Shown in pieces: positions 28,424 through 43,452 of a DNA stretch of 64,000 nucleotides (position 1 is its first letter; every line of letters begins with the position of its first letter). A model generated the notes under the pieces. That model saw only the letters and a list, made by a program, of their open reading frames with translations. It had not been told where the DNA came from and did no database searches. The translations under genes were made by a program, and so were the position numbers. The stretch is from Terriglobia bacterium (lineage in GTDB: Bacteria; Acidobacteriota; Terriglobia; 20CM-2-55-15): the NCBI GenBank assembly GCA_965198225.1, contig CBDAOY010000004.1, positions 64,001-128,000 of the forward strand, written 5' to 3'.

Positions 28424-29458
28424 TCATGCGGCGCGGTAGTCGGCCTGGTAATCCGAGCCGCGTTTCCATACCGCCCATACCCGTCGTGCCAGCTTGTTGG
28501 CCAGAGCCACGGTGGCCTTGTTGTATCCGCGCTGTTGCTGAAGCCGCAGGCCCCACTGCTGGAGAGAGGATGGCGTGATCGTGGGTCGGTGCGCCGACCA
28601 CAGGACGGATCGCGCCCCGTGGATCAGCAGCATCCGCAGATAACAGTCGCCCCGCTTACTGATCCGGCCCAGCCTTCGCCTGTTGCCGCTGGAATGCTCC
28701 CGCGGTGTCAGTCCCAGATAGCTGGCAAAGTGACGGGAAGAGGGGAACCGTTCCACATTCCCCACAAAACCCACCATCGCTGTGGCGGTCAGTAATCCGA
28801 TGCCGGGAATCGAACGCAGACGTGCAACCGCCGGTGTCTGCTTCGCCAAGGCTTCCAGCTGCTTCTCGACCGAGCGGATACGGCCTTCCAGTTCCCGTAT
28901 CTCGGTGCACATCTCACTGAAGACAGCACGCAATGCGTCCGGGATCTCCAGGTCGGCATCTTCGATCAGTCCCATCACTCCCGGCACTAGATGCTGTGCC
29001 CCCACCGGGATGATGAAACCAAACTCTCGGAGCAGTCCCCGAACCGTGTTGATTCGTGCGGTCCGTGTCGCCATCCAGCCCGACCGAATCCGGTGCAGTG
29101 CAGTCAGCTGTTGCTGCGCCACCGTCTTGACCGGAACCGGCCGGATTTCGCTGTTGCGAATCGCCTCGAGCAACCCCTTCACATCCGTGCGGTCGGTCTT
29201 GTTCCGCTGCACGTAGGGCCGAACGTACTGGGGCGAGATCAGAATTACCTCGTGCCCCAGCTTGCCAATCTCCCGTGCCCAATAGTGCGACGAACCGCAG
29301 GCTTCCATCACCACTCTGGACGGCGGCTGATTGACGAAGCACTTCAGAAGCTTCGACCGACTCAATCGATACCTCTTCTCGACATGTCCGGGACGGCCTG
29401 AAATCCCAATCTCGAAAACATTCTTTGCCAGATCCACTGCAATCGTCCTATCCTTCAT
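28424..29458 (-). CDS. IS110/IS1111 recombinase (DEDD + Tnp domain)
   Basis: AVDLAK, VMEACG, NKTDRTD, SIPGIG and YLGLTPREHSSG...GRISKRGD; uninterrupted 344 aa. Confidence 0.95.
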   Translation of the reverse strand: MKDRTIAVDLAKNVFEIGISGRPGHVEKRYRLSRSKLLKCFVNQPPSRVVMEACGSSHYWAREIGKLGHEVILISPQYVRPYVQRNKTDRTDVKGLLEAIRNSEIRPVPVKTVAQQQLTALHRIRSGWMATRTARINTVRGLLREFGFIIPVGAQHLVPGVMGLIEDADLEIPDALRAVFSEMCTEIRELEGRIRSVEKQLEALAKQTPAVARLRSIPGIGLLTATAMVGFVGNVERFPSSRHFASYLGLTPREHSSGNRRRLGRISKRGDCYLRMLLIHGARSVLWSAHRPTITPSSLQQWGLRLQQQRGYNKATVALANKLARRVWAVWKRGSDYQADYRAA

Positions 29459-29651: not shown

Positions 29652-31103
29652 GTGCAACACTCCCCCATCATGGTAGCTGTCGTAATCAGTGTCAGTCTCG
29701 CGGCACTCTGTGTGCCAGTCCACGCGCAGGATGACCAGGCATTAGCCGCCATGCGCACCCGAGCCGAGACGGGCGCCGCAGCCGCGCAGTTCAACCTCGG
29801 GAGTATGTACGCCAACGGGGAAGGCGTTCCACAAGATGCCGCCGAAGCCGTCCGCTGGTACCGCCAAGCCGCCGAACAGGGCCACGCGGAAGCGCAGTCT
29901 GCTCTTGGCGAAATGTACTCCTTCGGGCGGGGCGTCCCACAGGATGCCGCCGAAGCCGTCCGTTGGTACCGCCAAGCCGCCGAACAGGGCCACGCGGAAG
30001 CGCAGTCTAACCTCGGGACCATGTACGCCACCGGGCGGGGCGTCCCACAAGATGCCGCCGAAGCCATCCGCAGGTTCCGCCAAGCCGCCGAGCAAGGCCA
30101 CGTGCCCGCGCAGTTCAACCTCGGGACCATGTACGCCACCGGGCGGGGCGTCCCACAGGATGCCGCCGAAGCCGCCCGTTGGTTCCGCCAAGCCGCCGAA
30201 CAGGGCCACGCGGAAGCGCAGTTCAAGCTCGGGTTCATGTACGATTTCGGGCGGGGCGTCCCGCAGGATGCCGCCGAAGCCGTTCGCTGGTACCGCCAAG
30301 CCGCCGAACAGGGCCACGCGGCAGAAGCGCGTAAATGGACCGTAGAGGAAGCTCAGTTCAACCTCGGGAGTATGTACGCCAGCGGAGAGGGCGTCCCACA
30401 GGATGCCGCCGAAGCCGTTCGCTGGTACCGCCAAGCCGCCGAACGCGGCTACGCCCGCGCACAGCTTAACCTCGGGAACATGTACTCCTACGCGGAGGGC
30501 GTCCCACGGGACAACGTCGTGGCGTACATGTGGCTCACTCTCGCGGCCTCACGGCTGACCGGAGAGGATCGCGCGCAGGCGGTGCAATCCCGCACCCGCG
30601 TGGCCGCTCAGATGACGCCCGCCGCCCTCAGCGAGGCGCAACGGCTGGCACAGGACTGGCAGCCAGATGTCGCAGCACTTGTGGCCGCGGTCCATGTGCA
30701 AGTCGATTGTGCGGACTGGGACACATTTGGTTTCTTTAGGGCCGGCAAGATTTCCGACGTGATGCGGTGTTTGCAGACGGGTGCCGACCCGAATGCGCGG
30801 GACGAAGAGGGCTGGCCGGCCCTGCATCTGGCGGCGAGTGTCAACGCCGATCCCGGCGTGATCGTGGCCTTGCTCAATGCCGGAGCCGACCTGCACGCGC
30901 GGGAGCCGGAGGGCGGGACGCCCCTGCATGGGGCGGCGCGTTACAACGCCAATCCCGGCGTGATCGTGCCCCTGCTCGACGCCGGAGCCGACCCGAAGGC
31001 GCGGGTCGCTACCGGGGAGACGCCTTGGGATTTGGCGCAAGAGAACGACTCCCTGGAGGGAACCGATGCGTTGCAGCAGCTGAACGATGGGCGTTTTCAA
31101 TGA
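29652..31103 (+). CDS. Secreted Sel1-repeat + ankyrin-repeat protein
   Basis: Signal peptide; ~7 Sel1 units (AQFNLG.MY..G.GVPQDAAEAVRWYRQAAEQG, 108-bp DNA repeats); 3 ankyrin units at the C-terminus. Confidence 0.93.
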   Translation: MQHSPIMVAVVISVSLAALCVPVHAQDDQALAAMRTRAETGAAAAQFNLGSMYANGEGVPQDAAEAVRWYRQAAEQGHAEAQSALGEMYSFGRGVPQDAAEAVRWYRQAAEQGHAEAQSNLGTMYATGRGVPQDAAEAIRRFRQAAEQGHVPAQFNLGTMYATGRGVPQDAAEAARWFRQAAEQGHAEAQFKLGFMYDFGRGVPQDAAEAVRWYRQAAEQGHAAEARKWTVEEAQFNLGSMYASGEGVPQDAAEAVRWYRQAAERGYARAQLNLGNMYSYAEGVPRDNVVAYMWLTLAASRLTGEDRAQAVQSRTRVAAQMTPAALSEAQRLAQDWQPDVAALVAAVHVQVDCADWDTFGFFRAGKISDVMRCLQTGADPNARDEEGWPALHLAASVNADPGVIVALLNAGADLHAREPEGGTPLHGAARYNANPGVIVPLLDAGADPKARVATGETPWDLAQENDSLEGTDALQQLNDGRFQ

Positions 31104-31136
31104 CGCACAAACCGCCAGCCAGCTTGAATGCAGGAA

Positions 31137-31490
31137 ATCCCGGTAGGAGGTGAGGTGTCCCTCACCCCCTCCGGACAGAACGGCTCGTACCGGCCAGGTA
31201 AGCCGCTCCTCGATCAGCGAGCAAACTCCAGTTTGAGATTCCGTTGAGTGTAGTCGTGTTGAAAGACGAGTCCCCGGCGGCGAAACCACTCCTGACTCAG
31301 AACGAAACAGACCTCCTGTCGCATGACAGATTGCCACGCTTTCATCCGTGCCCAGGCGCGCCGGGCGTGATACACCGGAGCACCGGCGCGAATCATCATC
31401 CGTTGAAACTTCGCCGGCTTCTTCCACTTCTTCAATTGCATGGAACGTAGCCGACCACGGACGCACTCATCCAGCTCGCGGAACACCTTG
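31137..31490 (-). mobile_element. 3' remnant of a group II intron (IIC-like): maturase C-terminus, DV and DVI
   Basis: FRELDECVRGRLRSMQLKKWKKP; DV-like GAGCGGCT...TACGAGCCGTTC and a short DVI ending CCTACCGGGAT. Confidence 0.75.
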
Positions 31491-31494
31491 TGGA

Positions 31495-31700
31495 ATTCCT
31501 GAAAAGGTCGTGGCTTTATTGCTCGCCGTCCTGGGGGTGACCAAGACCCACTCCCGGCCGCATGTTTCCGATGACAACCCGTTTTCCGAGGCCCAGTTCA
31601 AAACGCTGAAGTACCGGCCGGGTTTCCCCGAACGTTTCGGCTGTATCCAGGATGCCAAGGCGTTCTGCCGCGACTTCTTCGGCTGGTACAACAACGTTCA
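31495..31700 (+). mobile_element. IS3-family transposase internal fragment
   Basis: LGVTKTHSRPHVSDDNPFSEAQFKTLKYRP...FFGWYN. Confidence 0.78.
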
Positions 31701-31722
31701 CGGGGTCGAGTCCGGCAGGGGG

Positions 31723-31831
31723 GTAGAGTCGACGACTGGCGCGGTGGCGGTAGGCAAAGGGGGTAGCTGTTGCCGGTGGCTTTCGCCGATTCCGGTGCCT
31801 CACTCCTCGCCGTGGCTTCGTTTCCAGTCGC
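31723..31831 (-). mobile_element. Group II intron B: orphan 3' end (long DVI)
   Basis: GCGACTGGAAACG...CGCCAGTCGTCGACTCTAC, with a self-complementary DVI stem and AC end. Confidence 0.7.
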
Positions 31832-31918
31832 ACCGGGTGGCCGGAGGCAGTTGCCCGCCTCCGGCTCCCACAGAACGCAGCGTGCGGATTTCCCGCACTG
31901 CGCTCTTCAGAATTGGAT

Positions 31919-33241
31919 TTACAGCACAGCGAGAGACTGGAACTCCCGATAGCGGAGAGCCAACTTGGGACGCTGTAACGGAAAGTGCAGCTGAATCCGG
32001 TTGAATACTTCCCACCGGACGAAGCCTGCACGACTACGACTGCTGAGCATTTGGCGCCAGTAACGTTCCACGGCCCGAGCGACGTGCTGCAGAGCCCGGA
32101 GGTTCCCGGCAATGCCATAGTAGGCGTAGTGCCCGCGCAAGACTCGGTTCAGATTGTGCACTTGCTCCCGGACCGGCAAGTGACGCATTCGCCTCATCAC
32201 GCCGCGTAGATGAGCCAGACTGCGTCGAAGTCGAGACTTCTCTGTTCGCAGTCCCACTCTAAAATTGCCTTTGCGATTACGCGTACAGTACAGGGTCATG
32301 CCCAGAAAATAGATCGTCTCTGGACGTTTTCTCCCGCGCCGGACGACATCGCGCTGGGCATAGCGGCCGAATTCGACGAGCTTCGTCTTGGTCGGCTCCG
32401 GAACCAGTCCAAACTTTCCCAGTCGCTTGCGCAGAACGTTCTGGAAACGAAGCGCATCGTCCCGATATTGGAAACACACGACAAAGTCGTCGATGTACCG
32501 CACCAGATACGCTTCACCCTTCAGGCGTGGCCGGACCATCCGGTCAAACCACAGGTCAAGCACATAATGCAGGTACAGATTGCTCAGCAGAACGCTGATC
32601 GACCCACCTTGCGGGGTTCCCTCTTCGTTCGAATGCAATTCCCCGTCTTCGAAAACGCCCGCCTTTAACCATCGTCGTATCAGACTGATGATCCGCGGAT
32701 CTCCGACTCGATGCTCCACAAAGCGGAGTAGCCATCCATGGTCTAAACTCCCGAAAAAGTTCTTCAAGTCCGCCTCCAACACCCAACTCACCTTGCATCC
32801 GGAAATCACCTCATGGAGGGTTGCCAGTGCATTGTGGGCGCCCAGCCCAGGCCGGCCACCAAAGGAACAGGGCAAGAAGTCCTGCTCGTAGATGGCGACC
32901 AATACCTCGGCCACGCTGCGCTGAAGGGCCCGATCTTGAACACAGGGCACGCCCAGGGGACGTTTCTCCTGCTTGCCGGGCTTGGGGATATACACCCGCC
33001 GAATCGGCGGAGCGCGATATCCCTTCTGGTGAACAGACTGGAGCATTGGCTCCACCCAGACTCCGAATTCCTCCTTCGCCTCCGGTACCCTCTGACCATC
33101 ACATCCGGGAGCCGTGTTGCGGGGCACTTGACACAGGTTCTTCCACACACGCTCTCGGGTGACATGATGCGCCAGTGACGTGAACCGGAGCTTTGGCTCA
33201 CTCCGAGCTTTCGCCGCTATTCGTTCCAGTTTCGTTTCCAT
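31919..33241 (-). CDS. ltrA: Group II intron reverse transcriptase/maturase, no endonuclease domain
   Basis: APGCDG, RRVYIPK, RPLGVP, EADLKNFF, GTPQGG, YIDD and domain X LRGHYAYY. Confidence 0.95.
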   Translation of the reverse strand: METKLERIAAKARSEPKLRFTSLAHHVTRERVWKNLCQVPRNTAPGCDGQRVPEAKEEFGVWVEPMLQSVHQKGYRAPPIRRVYIPKPGKQEKRPLGVPCVQDRALQRSVAEVLVAIYEQDFLPCSFGGRPGLGAHNALATLHEVISGCKVSWVLEADLKNFFGSLDHGWLLRFVEHRVGDPRIISLIRRWLKAGVFEDGELHSNEEGTPQGGSISVLLSNLYLHYVLDLWFDRMVRPRLKGEAYLVRYIDDFVVCFQYRDDALRFQNVLRKRLGKFGLVPEPTKTKLVEFGRYAQRDVVRRGRKRPETIYFLGMTLYCTRNRKGNFRVGLRTEKSRLRRSLAHLRGVMRRMRHLPVREQVHNLNRVLRGHYAYYGIAGNLRALQHVARAVERYWRQMLSSRSRAGFVRWEVFNRIQLHFPLQRPKLALRYREFQSLAVL

Positions 33242-33367
33242 GACTGGTTGTTCCTCTCGTTGCATAGAGGACCGTATCCTCCCGTTGCATGGAGCTCATG
33301 TTTCCCAAGAACGAGTCCACTTCTGCTGGCCGCTTCCCCATGTGATCGGCTCTCCCGACCTCGGAGT

Positions 33368-34438
33368 GTAGAGTCGAAAGTGGTCGGGCCGATCGGCCCT
33401 TCCACCGTCCGCTCAATCAAACGGCTCGTGCGGTTTTCCCGCAAGCCGCTTTCCTCAGTTGCTCCTCGTTCGGAATTCGCTGTGTGGCGGCAGGTGGCGG
33501 CTTCGTTCGTACCGCGTTTGGGTCTTTCGCTAAGGGAACTATCCAAGTTCGCACATTCACGATATCTCCTCCACCGTCCGCTCAATCAAACGGCTCGTGC
33601 GGTTTTCCCGCAAGCCGCTTTCCTCAGTTGCTCCTCGTTCGGAATTCGCTGTGTGGCGGCAGGTGGCGGCTTCGTTCGTACCGCGTTTGGGTCTTTCGCT
33701 AAGGGAACTATCCAATTCCACGATCTCCGCGTTTCCCATCGCTCGCACATTCACGACTGAGTACGGGGACTTCCCCCTCCAACGGGCCTTTTGGACCCGC
33801 CAGCGCCGCTGCTCGAAGCAACGATCCGAGACCTTATGTTTGCCGTCTCGTTCCTGAGTACTATTCCCCGATCCGATTCCTGACACCGCGTCGGCCGGAA
33901 TTTCGCTCTCGCTTATATCCGCACCTACCGCGCAGGGCTCTAGGTCGATGTTTGTCTTCTCGGTTGCCCGCCCTTTCGTCTGCGGGTGCCACATCATCTC
34001 GACCTTACCTTCCGCTCGGACGATACCAGGCCTCCCTGGGTCACTCGCGTCTCTTCTCCACCGTGTCGCCCGCACACACCTTGGTGCGATGGGGTGGAAC
34101 CAATGCGCCTTCGCCCCAATAGTGCGGGCTCGACCATTCCCCATCTTTGGCCGACCGGTTCATCCTCGGGATGGCTCCCGTCGATTACGACCCGGTGGTT
34201 CTCCTCATGCCCTTCAGACCCCACCTCGCGGTGGGCGCCCTGCCCTCCAAAGTTTCCGTAGCTGGCTCCAGCTTTGCCTTGGCCGTATCCGGCTTTCGCC
34301 TTCGTGCCCGTTTAGGCATCTGCACTACCTGTCTACACTTCGGCCAGTGAGGCATTACCCCCACTTGTTGGATATCGACCCGTGGCCTCGGGCCGAGCGG
34401 GACTTTAACCCGCCGGAAACGCGTGCTGCCAGGCACGC
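33368..34438 (-). ncRNA. ORF-less group II intron C nested in domain III of intron A, with duplicated DV
   Basis: Starts GCGTG and ends CGACTCTAC; DV AAGCGGCTTGCGGGAAAACCGCACGAGCCGTTT; EBS1-like ACTATT at 34118-34123. Excision restores CTGGCTGATAGT|ACTCCGAGG of the host DIII. Confidence 0.8.
33401..33715. repeat. 146-bp direct repeat (33401-33546, 33570-33715) with 23-bp filler
   Basis: Read directly from the sequence. Confidence 0.95.
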
Positions 34439-34839
34439 ACTATCAGCCAGTCTGACTTCCGACAGGCCTTCGGGTCTTCCTCGCGTTGTTGGCTTGTCCA
34501 ACCCTACAAGCTCCGCTTGAACCTGACGGATCTCCCTTGTTCCCATGAAATCCTTGGTTGCATGCCGGCGGTACGAACCCCGGAAGCACCCCAGGGCACT
34601 TGCCATTGCGTGCCCTGCGATTCCGCCTTCCCCCTAGAGCGACAGGGTCGGCTACTTCAACCACGTTCGATTTCGGGGCTATCTTTCCGTTCACTGGTGT
34701 TCCGGCCTACTCCCTCCCTGTCTACGCTTCGCAGTGTCCGTCACCGACCACCACGCAAGACTCGGTACGTGGCTGCCGGCTAGGCTCTGCCACGGCCGCC
34801 ATCTCAGGCGACTGGATCTCATGCGCTTGCAAGGCGCAA

Positions 34840-35807
34840 CGCTCCCGGAACCCTGCGTCCTGATGCACCAGCAGCATCCGCACCCGGACATCGGCTGCCA
34901 GTCCGCTCAAGGTGTCCGATACGATCAGGCCGCTGCCGAGGTCCACGCCCGCGCCCGTCTCGGCGTCCCCGCCGTCGCGCCGCAGCCCGATCTCGACGGT
35001 CGGCGTCAGCGCCAGTCGGCCTGCGAGGCGGTAGTGCCGCGAGCCTTCGAGCCCCGTCCGGAACCGGGTGACCGTCGCCGTGGTCGCCGCCAGCCGCCCG
35101 GTCGGGCCGTCCACCGCGTCGCTTGCCGTGCCGACCCACAGGGCGTCGGCCTTGAACGCCAGCGCGAAGCCGCCCACCACCGAGTCCGCCAGATCGCCCC
35201 GCAGGCCTCCGGCCGCCATGGCCATCGACAACCCGCTCTTGAGCGTTGGTCCCCCGCCCGGCGTCAACGCCAGCGCGCCCTTGCCGTATCCGGTCACGCC
35301 CCACAGGGTGATCCGGTCGGTCACCTTGTAGCCTAGCCAAGGGTAAAGGCCCGTCACCGACGAGATTACCTCGCCGGCGTCGGCTCCCGAGTAGCCGCCC
35401 CGGCCCCGGCTGTGTGCCAGCGACAGGCCCGCCACCAGCGGCCCTCGCGCGTAGTCGGCCCCGACCATCGTCGTGCGCACGTCGCCGCCCAGCGACAGAT
35501 CGCCCTCGCGGCCAGCGAAGCGCGACTGCGCCCCCCGGCTCCAGAACGAGAGGATGCCGCCGCGCGTCTCGCGGGTGAGCGCAACGTCGGAGCCGGTCAG
35601 CAAGTCGCCGCCGCCGAGACCCATCCGGAGCAGCCCGCCGGTGTGCATCATCCCGTCGCCGGCGCCCGGCGGCTGCCCGCCGGCCAGACCGCTGAGATGG
35701 CTGAGCACGTTGAGCGCGATGTCGCGCTCCATGCCCCGTCGCAGTTCCCGGCCGGCGACCCGGCCCCGGAAGCCGGGCTCGCGGGGCGCCGCCAGCCGGG
35801 CCTCCAC
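34840..35807 (-). pseudogene. Autotransporter beta-barrel fragment, cut by intron A
   Basis: SFWSRGAQSRFAGREG, GADY, LYPWLGY and EIGLRRDGGDAETGAG; no passenger domain or 3' end present. Confidence 0.8.
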
Positions 35808-41244: not shown

Positions 41245-43452
41245 GTGCGCCATGAAGGCGCGGTTGGAGGAATCCAGCCAAGCTGGCTGGTTTCTGACCG
41301 GCAGTTGAGATACTGCCCCACTCGGTCAGGGAGCCGAGTGGAAGGGGGTTGCAAAGCTTCGCCATATGCCGATGGCGGGGTGTCATGAGCAGCGCAGCCT
41401 GAACTGTACCAGACGCGATCCATTCATCGTGGGCTGGGCTACCGCAGGACCTATGGCGAGACAACGAAGCATGCGGGGGAAGCCCCTGTATTTAGCCGGA
41501 CAACCCTCGTAACGGAATGGATTGGGGGGATGTGGTGCGAACTGGCCGGACTTTATGTTTCCGGCTGGTGGCTGCGTCGGACGCTGCCGATGATGGGAGT
41601 TCCCCATTGCCATCATCCAGAGCCACCAGGGGTAGAGCATGCCACCTACAGGGTCCACAGGTTGGGAACCGGAACATGGGAACCCGCCATCTTCCGCCCG
41701 TAAACGGATACGGGCTAACCGCGGCGGTCGGCGAAGGAAGGCGGTGGGGGCGGAGTCTCCGTAGTAGTCCGAGACCGGGAAAGCCGGTTACATGGCGAAG
41801 GGAGACAGGGAGTCGATAAGCTTTCGAAGCCGGAGGAGCGATCTGTGGACACAGATCAACGGGCGGACCGAGCCTGGTTACTCGGCGTGCAGCGGAAGTT
41901 GTATCAATGGAGTCGGGAACACCCCGGCGAAACGTATCGTGAACTGTGGAATTGGGTGACCGATATCCGCAACTTGCGGTGCGCCTGGAATCGTGTGTCC
42001 CAGAATCGGGGCCACCGCACACCAGGTATCGACGGGCAGACGGTAGGAAAGATTCGCCGCAGGTTGGGCGAGGAAGCCTTCCTGGAGGGGCTACGCTGCG
42101 AACTGCGGGCGGGGGCATTCACACCCAGTCCGTGTCGCCGAAAGCTCATTCCCAAGGTAGGCAAACCGGGGCAGTTCCGACCTCTGGGGATTCCTACGGT
42201 CACCGACCGCGTGGTGCAATGCGCGGTCAAACAGCTTCTGGAGCCGATAGTCGAAGCGCGGTTCTGGCACGTCTCGTACGGTTTTCGACCGGGTCGAGGA
42301 TGTCACGGCGCTTTGGAGCATATTCGGATGGCAATGCGACCGCGACGACGGAACGACGCGGACGGCAAACGTCACGATCCCCCTTACCAATGGGTGATCG
42401 AAGGCGACATCAAGGGTTGCTTCGATCATATCGATCACCATCTGTTGATGAACCGGGTGCGTCGGCACTGCGGGGATCGCAAGGTGAATCGATTGCTCGT
42501 GCAGTTCCTGAAAGCCGGCGTTCTGGCGGAGGATCAGTTCCTCAGAACTGATGCCGGGACGCCGCAGGGAGGAATCATCTCGCCGCTGCTTGCGAACATC
42601 GCGCTCAGTATCATCGAGGAGCGGTACGAGCGGTGGGTGAACCACCAGACCAAGCGTCAGGCACGACGGACATCGAGCGGGATCAAGGCGGCGCTGGAGG
42701 CTCGGAGCACGGATCGCCGGTCAGGCCGGAACGTGTTCTTCCCGATCCGGTACGCTGATGATTTCGTCGTACTCGTCTGTGGGACTGAAGCTCAGGCTCA
42801 GGCTGAACGGACAGCATTGGAAGCAGTGCTGATGGACAGCATGGGATTGACTCTGTCACCTGAGAAGACTCGAATCACTGCCTTAACGCGAGGATTCGAG
42901 TTTCTCGGACACCGCGTGCGACTGCGTTGGGATCCTCGATACGGCTGGACGCCGCGCGTCGAGATTCCGAAACACAAAGTCGCCGATTTGCGCTATCGGG
43001 TCAAACAGTGGACCGGTCGCGCAACGACGCCTTGGCCTTTGCCGAAGTTATTTCGGAAGCTGAATCCCATCCTCCGTGGTTGGGCGCACTTCTATCGTTA
43101 CTGTACCGGGGCCAAGAAGATTCTCTTCAGTCTCGACTGGTATGTTCGAGATCGGCTCTGGCGTTGGCTACGGAAGAAGATGCCGAAGGCGCAAGTCTCA
43201 TCGTTGTTGCGGTTTCGGAAGCCGAGTTCGATCCGTCCTGCGTGGCGGGTCTGGCGAGACGGCCGATCCGAACAGTTTCAGATGGGATGGCTGACGGTTC
43301 AGCGCTACCGTCGCGGCTGGATGCGAGCCCCCGACTTTACATGGACTTCTGGAGAGCCGGATGCATAACGAAAGGTGCACGTCCGGTTCGGCGAGAGGGC
43401 ATGCGAAACCTCCGCTGGTTAACAGCGGCTCGGCGCGCATGCCCTACTCAAC
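41245..43452 (+). mobile_element. Complete group II intron
   Basis: GTGCG start; DV GAGCCGGATGCATAACGAAAGGTGCACGTCCGGTTC; ends CTACTCAAC. Removal restores GAC ATC A|CC TAC (D-I-T-Y). Confidence 0.93.
41845..43368 (+). CDS. ltrA: Group II intron reverse transcriptase/maturase, no HNH domain
   Basis: TPGIDG, RPLGIP, SYGFRPGR, EGDIKGCFD, GTPQGG, YADD and LNPILRGWAHFY. Confidence 0.95.
   Translation: MDTDQRADRAWLLGVQRKLYQWSREHPGETYRELWNWVTDIRNLRCAWNRVSQNRGHRTPGIDGQTVGKIRRRLGEEAFLEGLRCELRAGAFTPSPCRRKLIPKVGKPGQFRPLGIPTVTDRVVQCAVKQLLEPIVEARFWHVSYGFRPGRGCHGALEHIRMAMRPRRRNDADGKRHDPPYQWVIEGDIKGCFDHIDHHLLMNRVRRHCGDRKVNRLLVQFLKAGVLAEDQFLRTDAGTPQGGIISPLLANIALSIIEERYERWVNHQTKRQARRTSSGIKAALEARSTDRRSGRNVFFPIRYADDFVVLVCGTEAQAQAERTALEAVLMDSMGLTLSPEKTRITALTRGFEFLGHRVRLRWDPRYGWTPRVEIPKHKVADLRYRVKQWTGRATTPWPLPKLFRKLNPILRGWAHFYRYCTGAKKILFSLDWYVRDRLWRWLRKKMPKAQVSSLLRFRKPSSIRPAWRVWRDGRSEQFQMGWLTVQRYRRGWMRAPDFTWTSGEPDA

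Follow-up and report, generated by a model that had tools for sequence, protein, structure and literature searches.

How do group II introns come to lie one inside another, and do the intron types involved each serve as target for the other? The question is raised by a 64,000-nucleotide stretch of a Terriglobia bacterium (GenBank assembly GCA_965198225.1, contig CBDAOY010000004.1, positions 64,001 to 128,000; hereafter the window), in which a reverse transcriptase (RT)-encoding group II intron, A, contains a second intron, X, and is followed by the end of a third, B. The initial annotation, which called X intron C, had proposed a three-layer nest with reciprocal targeting, A-type introns inserting at the domain V/VI boundary of B/C-type introns and C-type introns inserting into domain III of A. 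We consider it likely that A belongs to a widespread lineage that homes into the core of other group II introns, that X homes to a loop of domain III, and that the copy of A in the window occupies an ectopic mimic site and has acquired its 3' flank by recombination.

Positions below follow the numbering of the window, and all features of the nest lie on the minus strand, on which the sequence statements of the initial annotation hold. The genome to which the window belongs (G000) comprises 9 contigs and 6.4 Mb, and blocks of the nest region are repeated many times within it; from these copies the elements A, X and B could be separated. A and the end of its host are laid out as follows:

31832 to 34839, minus strand: intron A, an RT-encoding group II intron, recognised by its RF02005 and RF00029 matches and bounded by comparison with uninterrupted B, cysK-like orthologs and an empty-site contig
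34570 to 34804, minus strand: domain I core of A (Rfam group-II-D1D4-6, RF02005; 137 bits)
31919 to 33265, minus strand: intron-encoded protein of A, 448 amino acids, with RVT_1 and GIIM; the six open copies in the genome are 100% identical
31832 to 31907, minus strand: domains V and VI of A (RF00029; 47.1 bits, cut-off 40)
31723 to 31831, minus strand: B3, the last 109 nucleotides (nt) of host intron B, being the 3' part of a long domain VI and ending CGACUCUAC

The sequence behind A, taken from the start for domain VI and the end of another intron, is B3 (GCGACTGG...CGACTCTAC, 31831-31723), which is present ten times in the genome. Eight of these ten 3' ends of B are preceded by the 3' end of A, and two are uninterrupted. 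Because both uninterrupted copies are directly preceded by a canonical domain V, GAGCCGGATGCGGGAAATCCGCATGTCCGGTTC-GAT-GAGCG (GATGAGCG after domain V), intact B reads GAGCG followed by GCGACTGG, the very arrangement that had been predicted for an uninterrupted copy. Four copies of A carry the domain V of B and GATGAGCG directly on their 5' side. Full B exists elsewhere in the genome, with a normal 5' end (GUGCGCC) and with its RT open in three copies. Of the three layers originally proposed for the window, A with X inside and the end of B behind it are indeed present; B is represented by its last 109 nt only, the sequence from 34840 upward being a protein-coding open reading frame (ORF) and not B.

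Comparison of interrupted with uninterrupted B had a single solution, in which the insert reads TTGCGCC...CCCGGT. A accordingly extends over 3008 nt with X inside and 1938 nt without it, ending UUGCGCC...CCCGGU; seven 5' parts and ten 3' parts of it are found in the genome. A copy with X-in-X in a cysK-like gene (L115, G000 C5:60100-64900) leaves predicted exons that join in frame, EFHER to FPALSLVGNT, and the orthologs in six related genomes are uninterrupted at this point, with EFHER or EFHDR followed by YPALSLVGNT or near variants. In addition, a contig of run X1 omits precisely the 3790 nt of this insert. Since run X1 holds the empty allele at flank depth, the cysK-like insertion is polymorphic or recent. 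Judged by uninterrupted B, the cysK-like orthologs and the empty-site contig, A starts with U and not with G. Among the relatives of A described below, the intron begins UUG(C/U)G in 70 of 70 loci and ends CCCGGU in 70 of 76, and the base before the insertion, which is part of the intron-binding site IBS1, is G in 69 of 70.

Inside these ends A carries the parts of a group II intron: domains V and VI, a domain I with pairing exon-binding sites (EBS), and an RT and maturase ORF in domain IV. Domain V, at about 31905-31873, shows an AGC triad and a GAAA loop and is followed by domain VI. The protein, for which an alternative ATG lies at 33241, matches RVT_1 (E 5e-29) and GIIM (E 8e-5) and contains no endonuclease domain. 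A loop of domain I, CCCU-GUCGCUCU-AGGG, lies inside the RF02005 match (34804-34570) and provides EBS1, CGCUC at 34641-34637, complementary to the GAGCG that closes the 5' flank at 34844-34840; EBS2, GAAC, is found at 34668-34665.

A one-genome-per-species scan yielded 80 loci whose RT is 73-100% identical to that of A. The record titles assign them to Acidobacteriota, Alpha-, Beta- and Gammaproteobacteria and Desulfobacterota-type metagenome-assembled genomes (MAGs), and cultured strains are included (Mesorhizobium, Microvirga, Methylobacter, Paraburkholderia and Caballeronia). The intron's 5' end was located in 70 of the 80 loci and the 3' end in 76, and 65 loci offered at least 50 nt of 5' flank. 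By a fixed rule, a domain V hairpin precedes the insertion in 52 of these 65, ending 8 nt (46 loci) or 9 nt (6 loci) upstream, compared with 64 matches among 1600 random positions in the same loci. The flanks of homologues of this RT are thus enriched for intron domain V, as the initial annotation had expected. In four related genomes, copies of A with 83-92% DNA identity and without X lie mostly after domain V of other introns, and Rfam places a host domain V directly upstream of A in L065, L066, L068 and L072. The domain I types of the hosts of A relatives include RF01999 and RF02005.

Two pairings accompany this position. EBS1 matches IBS1, the 5 nt before the insertion, without mismatch at 50 of 68 sites, and the mean number of mismatches over the 68 members is 0.29, compared with 1.08 when partners are shuffled (lowest of 1000 shuffles, 0.76), so the 5-nt pairing exceeds chance. 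The partners change together: CGCUC is found with GAGCG, CUCUC with GAGAG or GAGGG, CCCG(C/U) with GCGGG and CUCCC with GGGAG. The partner of EBS2, GA(A/U)C in domain I, is the final 4 nt of host domain V. At 51 of 64 sites the two pair without mismatch, and the middle pair covaries, being A-U (host-intron) in 24 cases, U-A in 19 and G-U in 10. The EBS1 loop first noted for the window therefore covaries with its target across the lineage.

The A lineage would thus home to the core of other group II introns. Its site would start with the 4 nt that close host domain V, paired with EBS2 (GAAC or GAUC), continue with the 3-nt J5/6 linker as a spacer, and finish with the first 5 nt of host domain VI, paired with EBS1. 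Retrohoming would then place A immediately after nt 5 and before nt 6 of that domain VI, and a change in EBS1 could retarget the lineage to other hosts. Members of the lineage serve as hosts as well. In OZ250139.1, a Vicinamibacterales MAG (L167, L172), introns of the A lineage sit in domain VI of their own kind; two 33-nt remnants of domain VI are stacked there, and a third host contains a complete A-in-A. Among 19 loci of more distant RT relatives (31-54% identity), a search for 5' ends beside domain V returned only spurious matches to coding sequence, under a limited rule and with 1.5-kb flanks.

Several further observations concern the lineage. The window itself contains, at 43352-43452 on the plus strand, domains V and VI of a second intron (RF00029, 48.9 bits) with GGTTC-GGC-GAGAG followed by G, which would be a fitting, though unoccupied, site for members of the A lineage with EBS1 CUCUC. 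One copy of A (L068, G003 C1:743800-753200) has a 2.9-kb insertion near domain I position 59. In a genome of another genus (L072/L122, G020 contig 24), A carries X-in-X, and its A parts are 100% identical to those of the window; this A/X composite differs at 14 alignment columns from a copy on G000 C6. The near identity points to a putative recent transfer, or to two assemblies that may be closer than their labels suggest.

For X, the relevant features of the window are:

33369 to 34438, minus strand: intron X, an ORF-less group II intron (the initial annotation's C), defined from copies and their alignment and a table of EBS1/IBS1 pairs
34439 to 34450, minus strand: 5' strand of domain III of A, which ends with AUAGU, its internal loop (from a consensus fold of A copies that lack X)
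33401 to 33715, minus strand: tandem duplication within X, seen as a self-match

X has the ends GCGUGCC...CGACUCUAC and is present in the genome with 20 5' ends and 21 3' ends. It measures 1070 nt in the window and about 904 nt in normal copies. The window copy contains a tandem duplication, 146 identical nt (33715-33570 and 33546-33401) 169 nt apart, which is absent from nine other aligned copies and spans domain V and the 5' strand of domain VI; owing to it, this copy has two domains V (33620-33588 and 33451-33419). Domain V, AAGCGGCUUGCGGGAAAACCGCACGAGCCGUUU, was read from the sequence; one copy of X scores 33.4 bits against RF00029, below the cut-off of 40, and domain I scores 24.5 bits against RF02001, where the cut-off is 32 and is not reached. 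No Pfam family was matched, at E up to 1, by its longest sense ORFs (186-195 amino acids), and some insertions and deletions among the copies are not multiples of three. X thus combines domain V, domain VI and an EBS1-bearing domain I and does not code for an RT or maturase. As previously annotated, GAGCG followed by G stands after its domain V (33414-33409), and its 3' end is CGACTCTAC (33377-33369), shared with B.

Empty sites define the insertion of X. X-less A, which exists in four other genomes, reads GGCTGATAGTACTCCGAGG, and ten aligned copies of uninterrupted X read AATAGTACTCAGG where other copies hold a second X. The inserted unit is the same in A and in X, GCGTGCC...CTCTAC after ATAGT. 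Because of these empty sites, the GT of the apparent GUGCG (34440) belongs to the target, and X starts two bases inside it. X in A is a precise insertion relative to the uninterrupted outer intron, that is, a twintron, and in the consensus fold of X-less A its site is the 5' internal loop of domain III. EBS1 of X, ACUAUU at 34123-34118 in the loop GCACUAUUG, pairs with AAUAGU or GAUAGU, the IBS1 of the window copy being GAUAGU (34444-34439). Fourteen of 19 copies pair without mismatch, and ACUAUG variants are found at CAUAGU at three separate sites, so that here, too, EBS1 covaries with its target.

By their flanks, the 20 5' ends of X sort into ten types; B adds an eleventh site, recognised from the 3' side. 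Nine of the 11 fall within introns that can be recognised: RF02005 accounts for three (A and two more), RF01999 and RF02001 for two each, and B (RF02003) and X itself for one each. X would accordingly use EBS1 ACUAU(U/G) to home to domain III of at least five group II families, its own included, behind an (R)UAGU in the internal loop, and would presumably be moved by an RT. The placement in domain III proposed for the C-type intron holds, then, but it is not specific for A. X is a general parasite of introns of many families, B and X itself included, and not the counterpart of A. Two side observations belong here. A 77% relative of X (L097, G032 contig 22) starts GTGTGC after the flank GGGTCAGATCGGGACTTTGG (GGGTCAGA...-type), which resembles the J2/3-domain III context of X sites, and two copies of B hold, in domain III and 12 nt downstream of where X inserts, a 1.47-kb insertion sequence related to the window's IS110-family element. 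A metagenome scan with the 24-nt 5' stretch of X gave 0 matches.

The copy of A in the window differs from the copies in B on its 5' side, where it interrupts a gene. Its flanks are:

34840 to 35801, minus strand: 5' exon, the C-terminal part of a protein-coding ORF (translation and G006 ortholog)
31702 to 31722, minus strand: a 21-nt tail, CCCCCTGCCGGACTCGACCCC, after B3
31516 to 31701, plus strand: truncated transposase fragment (rve_3, Pfam), the 3' flank

The ORF is cut after ...GGGTTCCGGGAGCG, and the window reads GGGTTCCGGGAGCG followed by A. A Pfam search of this ORF gave no family; it may resemble an autotransporter barrel. The junction contains IBS2 GUUC (34851-34848), a spacer CGG (34847-34845) and IBS1 GAGCG (34844-34840). 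The uninterrupted ortholog in G006, which is 74% identical, reads GGGTTCTCCGAGCGGGGC and continues for about 110 amino acids, which shows that the mimic site is native to the gene. A would then have inserted ectopically at GUUC-CGG-GAGCG, a mimic of the form GUUC-NNN-GAGCG within a protein-coding gene. B3 would most likely have been brought to its 3' side by homologous recombination with an A-in-B copy in direct orientation, an event that would also delete the remainder of the interrupted gene and the intervening DNA. Consistent with such a loss, a tblastn search of G000 for the remaining ~110 amino acids did not find them. Downstream, B3 is followed by the 21 nt and then by the transposase fragment on the opposite strand. 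B3 is followed by this tail in three loci only (window 31702-31722, G000 C2:42704 and C5:818879), each with a different downstream flank, and the C2 copy retains just 25 nt of A, being 5'-truncated. Such a tail could point to a longer retro-unit or to a fourth layer of hosts.

Other accounts of the nest have to be weighed against this one. Strict reciprocity, with A inserting into domain VI of B- and C-type introns, C-type introns inserting into domain III of A, and an obligate splicing order in the resulting closed loop, would explain A in B and X in domain III of A, and it draws on the GAGCGG and the end CGACUCUAC that X and B have in common. It nevertheless appears quite unlikely. Whereas the A-type half stands for B (8 of 10 ends) and across phyla, A was found in none of the 21 3' ends of X, though X offers GAUUGAGCG followed by G, a match to the EBS1 of A, and no B-type intron was found inside A. 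Moreover, X resembles B over 54 nt at domain V/VI only (72%), their sole similarity, and is not a recent derivative of it; X is also present in B, in other copies of X and in three or more other families; and relatives of A elsewhere use hosts of several families, including their own. Both targeting statements are right and general, unlike the closed loop. A circularly permuted group II RNA (order D5-D6-D1-D4) could mimic the local order of host domain V, 8 nt and A domain I, and the name of RF02005 itself refers to D1-D4 pieces. We rejected this candidate for the window locus, and its probability is practically negligible: A brings an RT ORF and domains V and VI of its own, empty sites exist, upstream the hosts possess their own RT and domains I-IV, and the permuted RNAs described in PMC8637638 have no ORF.

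The remaining alternatives concern the 3' side of the window copy. A longer mobile unit, made up of A, the 109-nt end of B and the 21 nt, might have been released as RNA by use of a 3' splice site further downstream and then retrotransposed whole into the mimic site, in the manner of Bacillus introns with 3' extensions, which according to PMC4424553 splice downstream. Such a unit would explain why three loci share B3 and the tail ahead of three different flanks and why A is reduced to 25 nt in one of them, as 5'-truncated reverse transcription would leave it, and the 5' junction in the window fits both EBS1 and EBS2 of A. Yet the 3' flank is an opposite-strand transposase fragment and not the continuation of the interrupted gene, so that a further rearrangement would be needed anyway, and the 21 nt were not found elsewhere in the genome; we regard this origin as unlikely. 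The assembly might, alternatively, have joined two separate loci, A-in-gene and A-in-B, across the 3-kb A/X repeat. Copies of A and X are many and near-identical, the repeat depth in run X1 is about 15-fold that of unique flanks, and the duplication in the window X is missing from the other aligned copies, all of which speak for a chimera. Separate loci would, on the other hand, leave the remainder of the gene elsewhere, where tblastn did not find it, and an 8-nt loose end in run X1 matches the 5' junction of the window; neither point is strong, though we regard a chimera as very unlikely. We continue to favour ectopic insertion of A followed by recombination with an A-in-B copy.

A number of results weigh against the reading of core-directed homing with a recombined window copy. 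The flanks of 13 of the 65 loci fail the domain V rule; by eye, about six look like mimic sites outside introns and the rest like a damaged or variant domain V, several of the 13 retaining its visible 3' strand. A fold test for the host's domain VI was positive at 43 of 62 sites, compared with 32 of 62 with swapped flanks, and does not discriminate because the hosts are related to each other. The termini of A deviate from the group II consensus GUGYG...AY. Comparison of the metatranscriptome contigs of runs X16 and X17, and of runs X1 and X2, whose kind is not recorded, with the cysK-like copy revealed no spliced RNA junction beyond the forms known from DNA; every form in the RNA contigs has a counterpart among the DNA copies (A with a single X rather than X-in-X), and any splicing of these introns, like the obligate order expected from twintrons in general (PMC4424553), would be a prediction.

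For X, all six copies of A that keep the junction hold it at the same site. Given this one shared site and the absence of X from A in four other genomes, X in A may be a single event rather than the outcome of recurrent targeting, since what sets the copies apart is X-in-X and rearrangements. Of 40 relatives examined, only G000 and G020 were seen to contain X, and a search for its RT-bearing parent among 15 intron pieces of the genome returned only the 54-nt similarity to B. With regard to the window copy, recombination alone does not explain three different flanks behind B3 and the 21 nt, and in a 9-contig assembly with many 3-kb repeats the combination of flanks could be a misjoin.

Homing of group II introns into group II introns is known. 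In Methanosarcina acetivorans, other group II introns serve as specific homing sites for RT-encoding as well as ORF-less introns (PMC4424553, summarising Dai and Zimmerly 2003); the resulting nests, which reach up to five layers and are kept in balance by recombination, offer a perpetual homing site outside host genes (PMC4424553). The nest described here is alike in its site-specific homing, its ORF-less passengers and its decay by recombination. To judge by the title of the 2003 paper, the targets in M. acetivorans are the intron ORFs (domain IV) of related introns, whereas here they lie in the ribozyme core, at the end of domain V and the start of VI and in the domain III loop; moreover, hosts of several structural families are used here, and the A lineage is spread over several phyla. 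In Thermosynechococcus elongatus, as reported in PMC2882425, TeI3 introns in TeI4 are ORF-less introns moved in trans into one conserved, EBS/IBS-defined site of RT-encoding introns. That site lies between the first two ATGs of the domain IV ORF and the inner and outer introns are close relatives, whereas X interrupts domain III and is unrelated in sequence to its hosts.

Organellar twintrons have been described in Euglena (PMC4424553), Porphyridium (PMC4476101) and lycophyte mitochondria (PMC7049729); they include a hypermobile intron that invades itself, and the inner intron often has to be removed first (PMC4424553). The inner introns described there lie in domain IV or domain I, and no lineage dedicated to domain VI or III is described there. 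Atypical 5' ends have precedents too: the mobile intron TeI4h has a 5' T instead of G (PMC2882425), and in fungal ribosomal RNA introns and C.te.I1 of C. tetani the splice site set by IBS1-EBS1 is not at the GUGYG start (PMC4424553). Those introns splice 1-33 nt upstream of the motif, whereas the junction of X lies 2 nt inside its apparent GUGCG and A has U at position 1. The targets of homing into introns given in these papers are domain IV or intron ORFs and, rarely, domain I. A full-text literature search brought up no homing lineage directed to the domain V/VI junction or to domain III, and older papers may hold an earlier description. Homing into introns is therefore known, while targeting of domain V/VI and of domain III is apparently new, with a prior description possible.

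It is conceivable, with a likelihood that we place just below even, that the A lineage forms an undescribed, phylum-spanning class of hyperparasites with a fixed 5' U that home to the near-universal domain V-J5/6-domain VI junction, and that X-like ORF-less introns make up a second guild in the domain III loop. Because the junction is near-universal, almost any group II intron, A included, would be a possible host. If this is true, group II introns would be a habitat with parasites of its own, able to disable or gate splicing of the host and to seed genome rearrangements. Intron homing has been known from few genomes and mostly into the dispensable domain IV; here, a whole lineage would be specialised on the catalytic core of its hosts, following a rule of target choice that comprises 4 + 3 + 5 nt and two covarying pairings. 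The nests also offer a natural case for asking whether a ribozyme folds around an intron in domain III or VI. For annotation, a domain V directly before a domain I would indicate a nest rather than a permuted or broken intron, and the nest accounts for part of the repeat-driven rearrangement in this genome.

The surroundings of the nest contain further mobile sequence. At 31110-31486 on the minus strand, the window holds the 3' fragment of another group II intron, consisting of a 90-amino-acid maturase C-terminus followed by domain V (GAGCGGCUUACCUGGCCGGUACGAGCCGUUC), UGU and domain VI; this C-terminus is 81-82% identical to the ends of RT ORFs at C9:459599-459868 and C6:342156-342425. An IS110-family transposase (28424-29458, minus strand) and a Sel1 and ankyrin repeat protein (29652-31103, plus strand) both adjoin the intron cluster. 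A different kind of intron-intron junction is seen at G000 C4:150206-150300 and C5:889425-889520, where an intron 3' end, ...CTACTCGAC, abuts the GTGTGCC 5' end of an RF01999-type intron that carries X.

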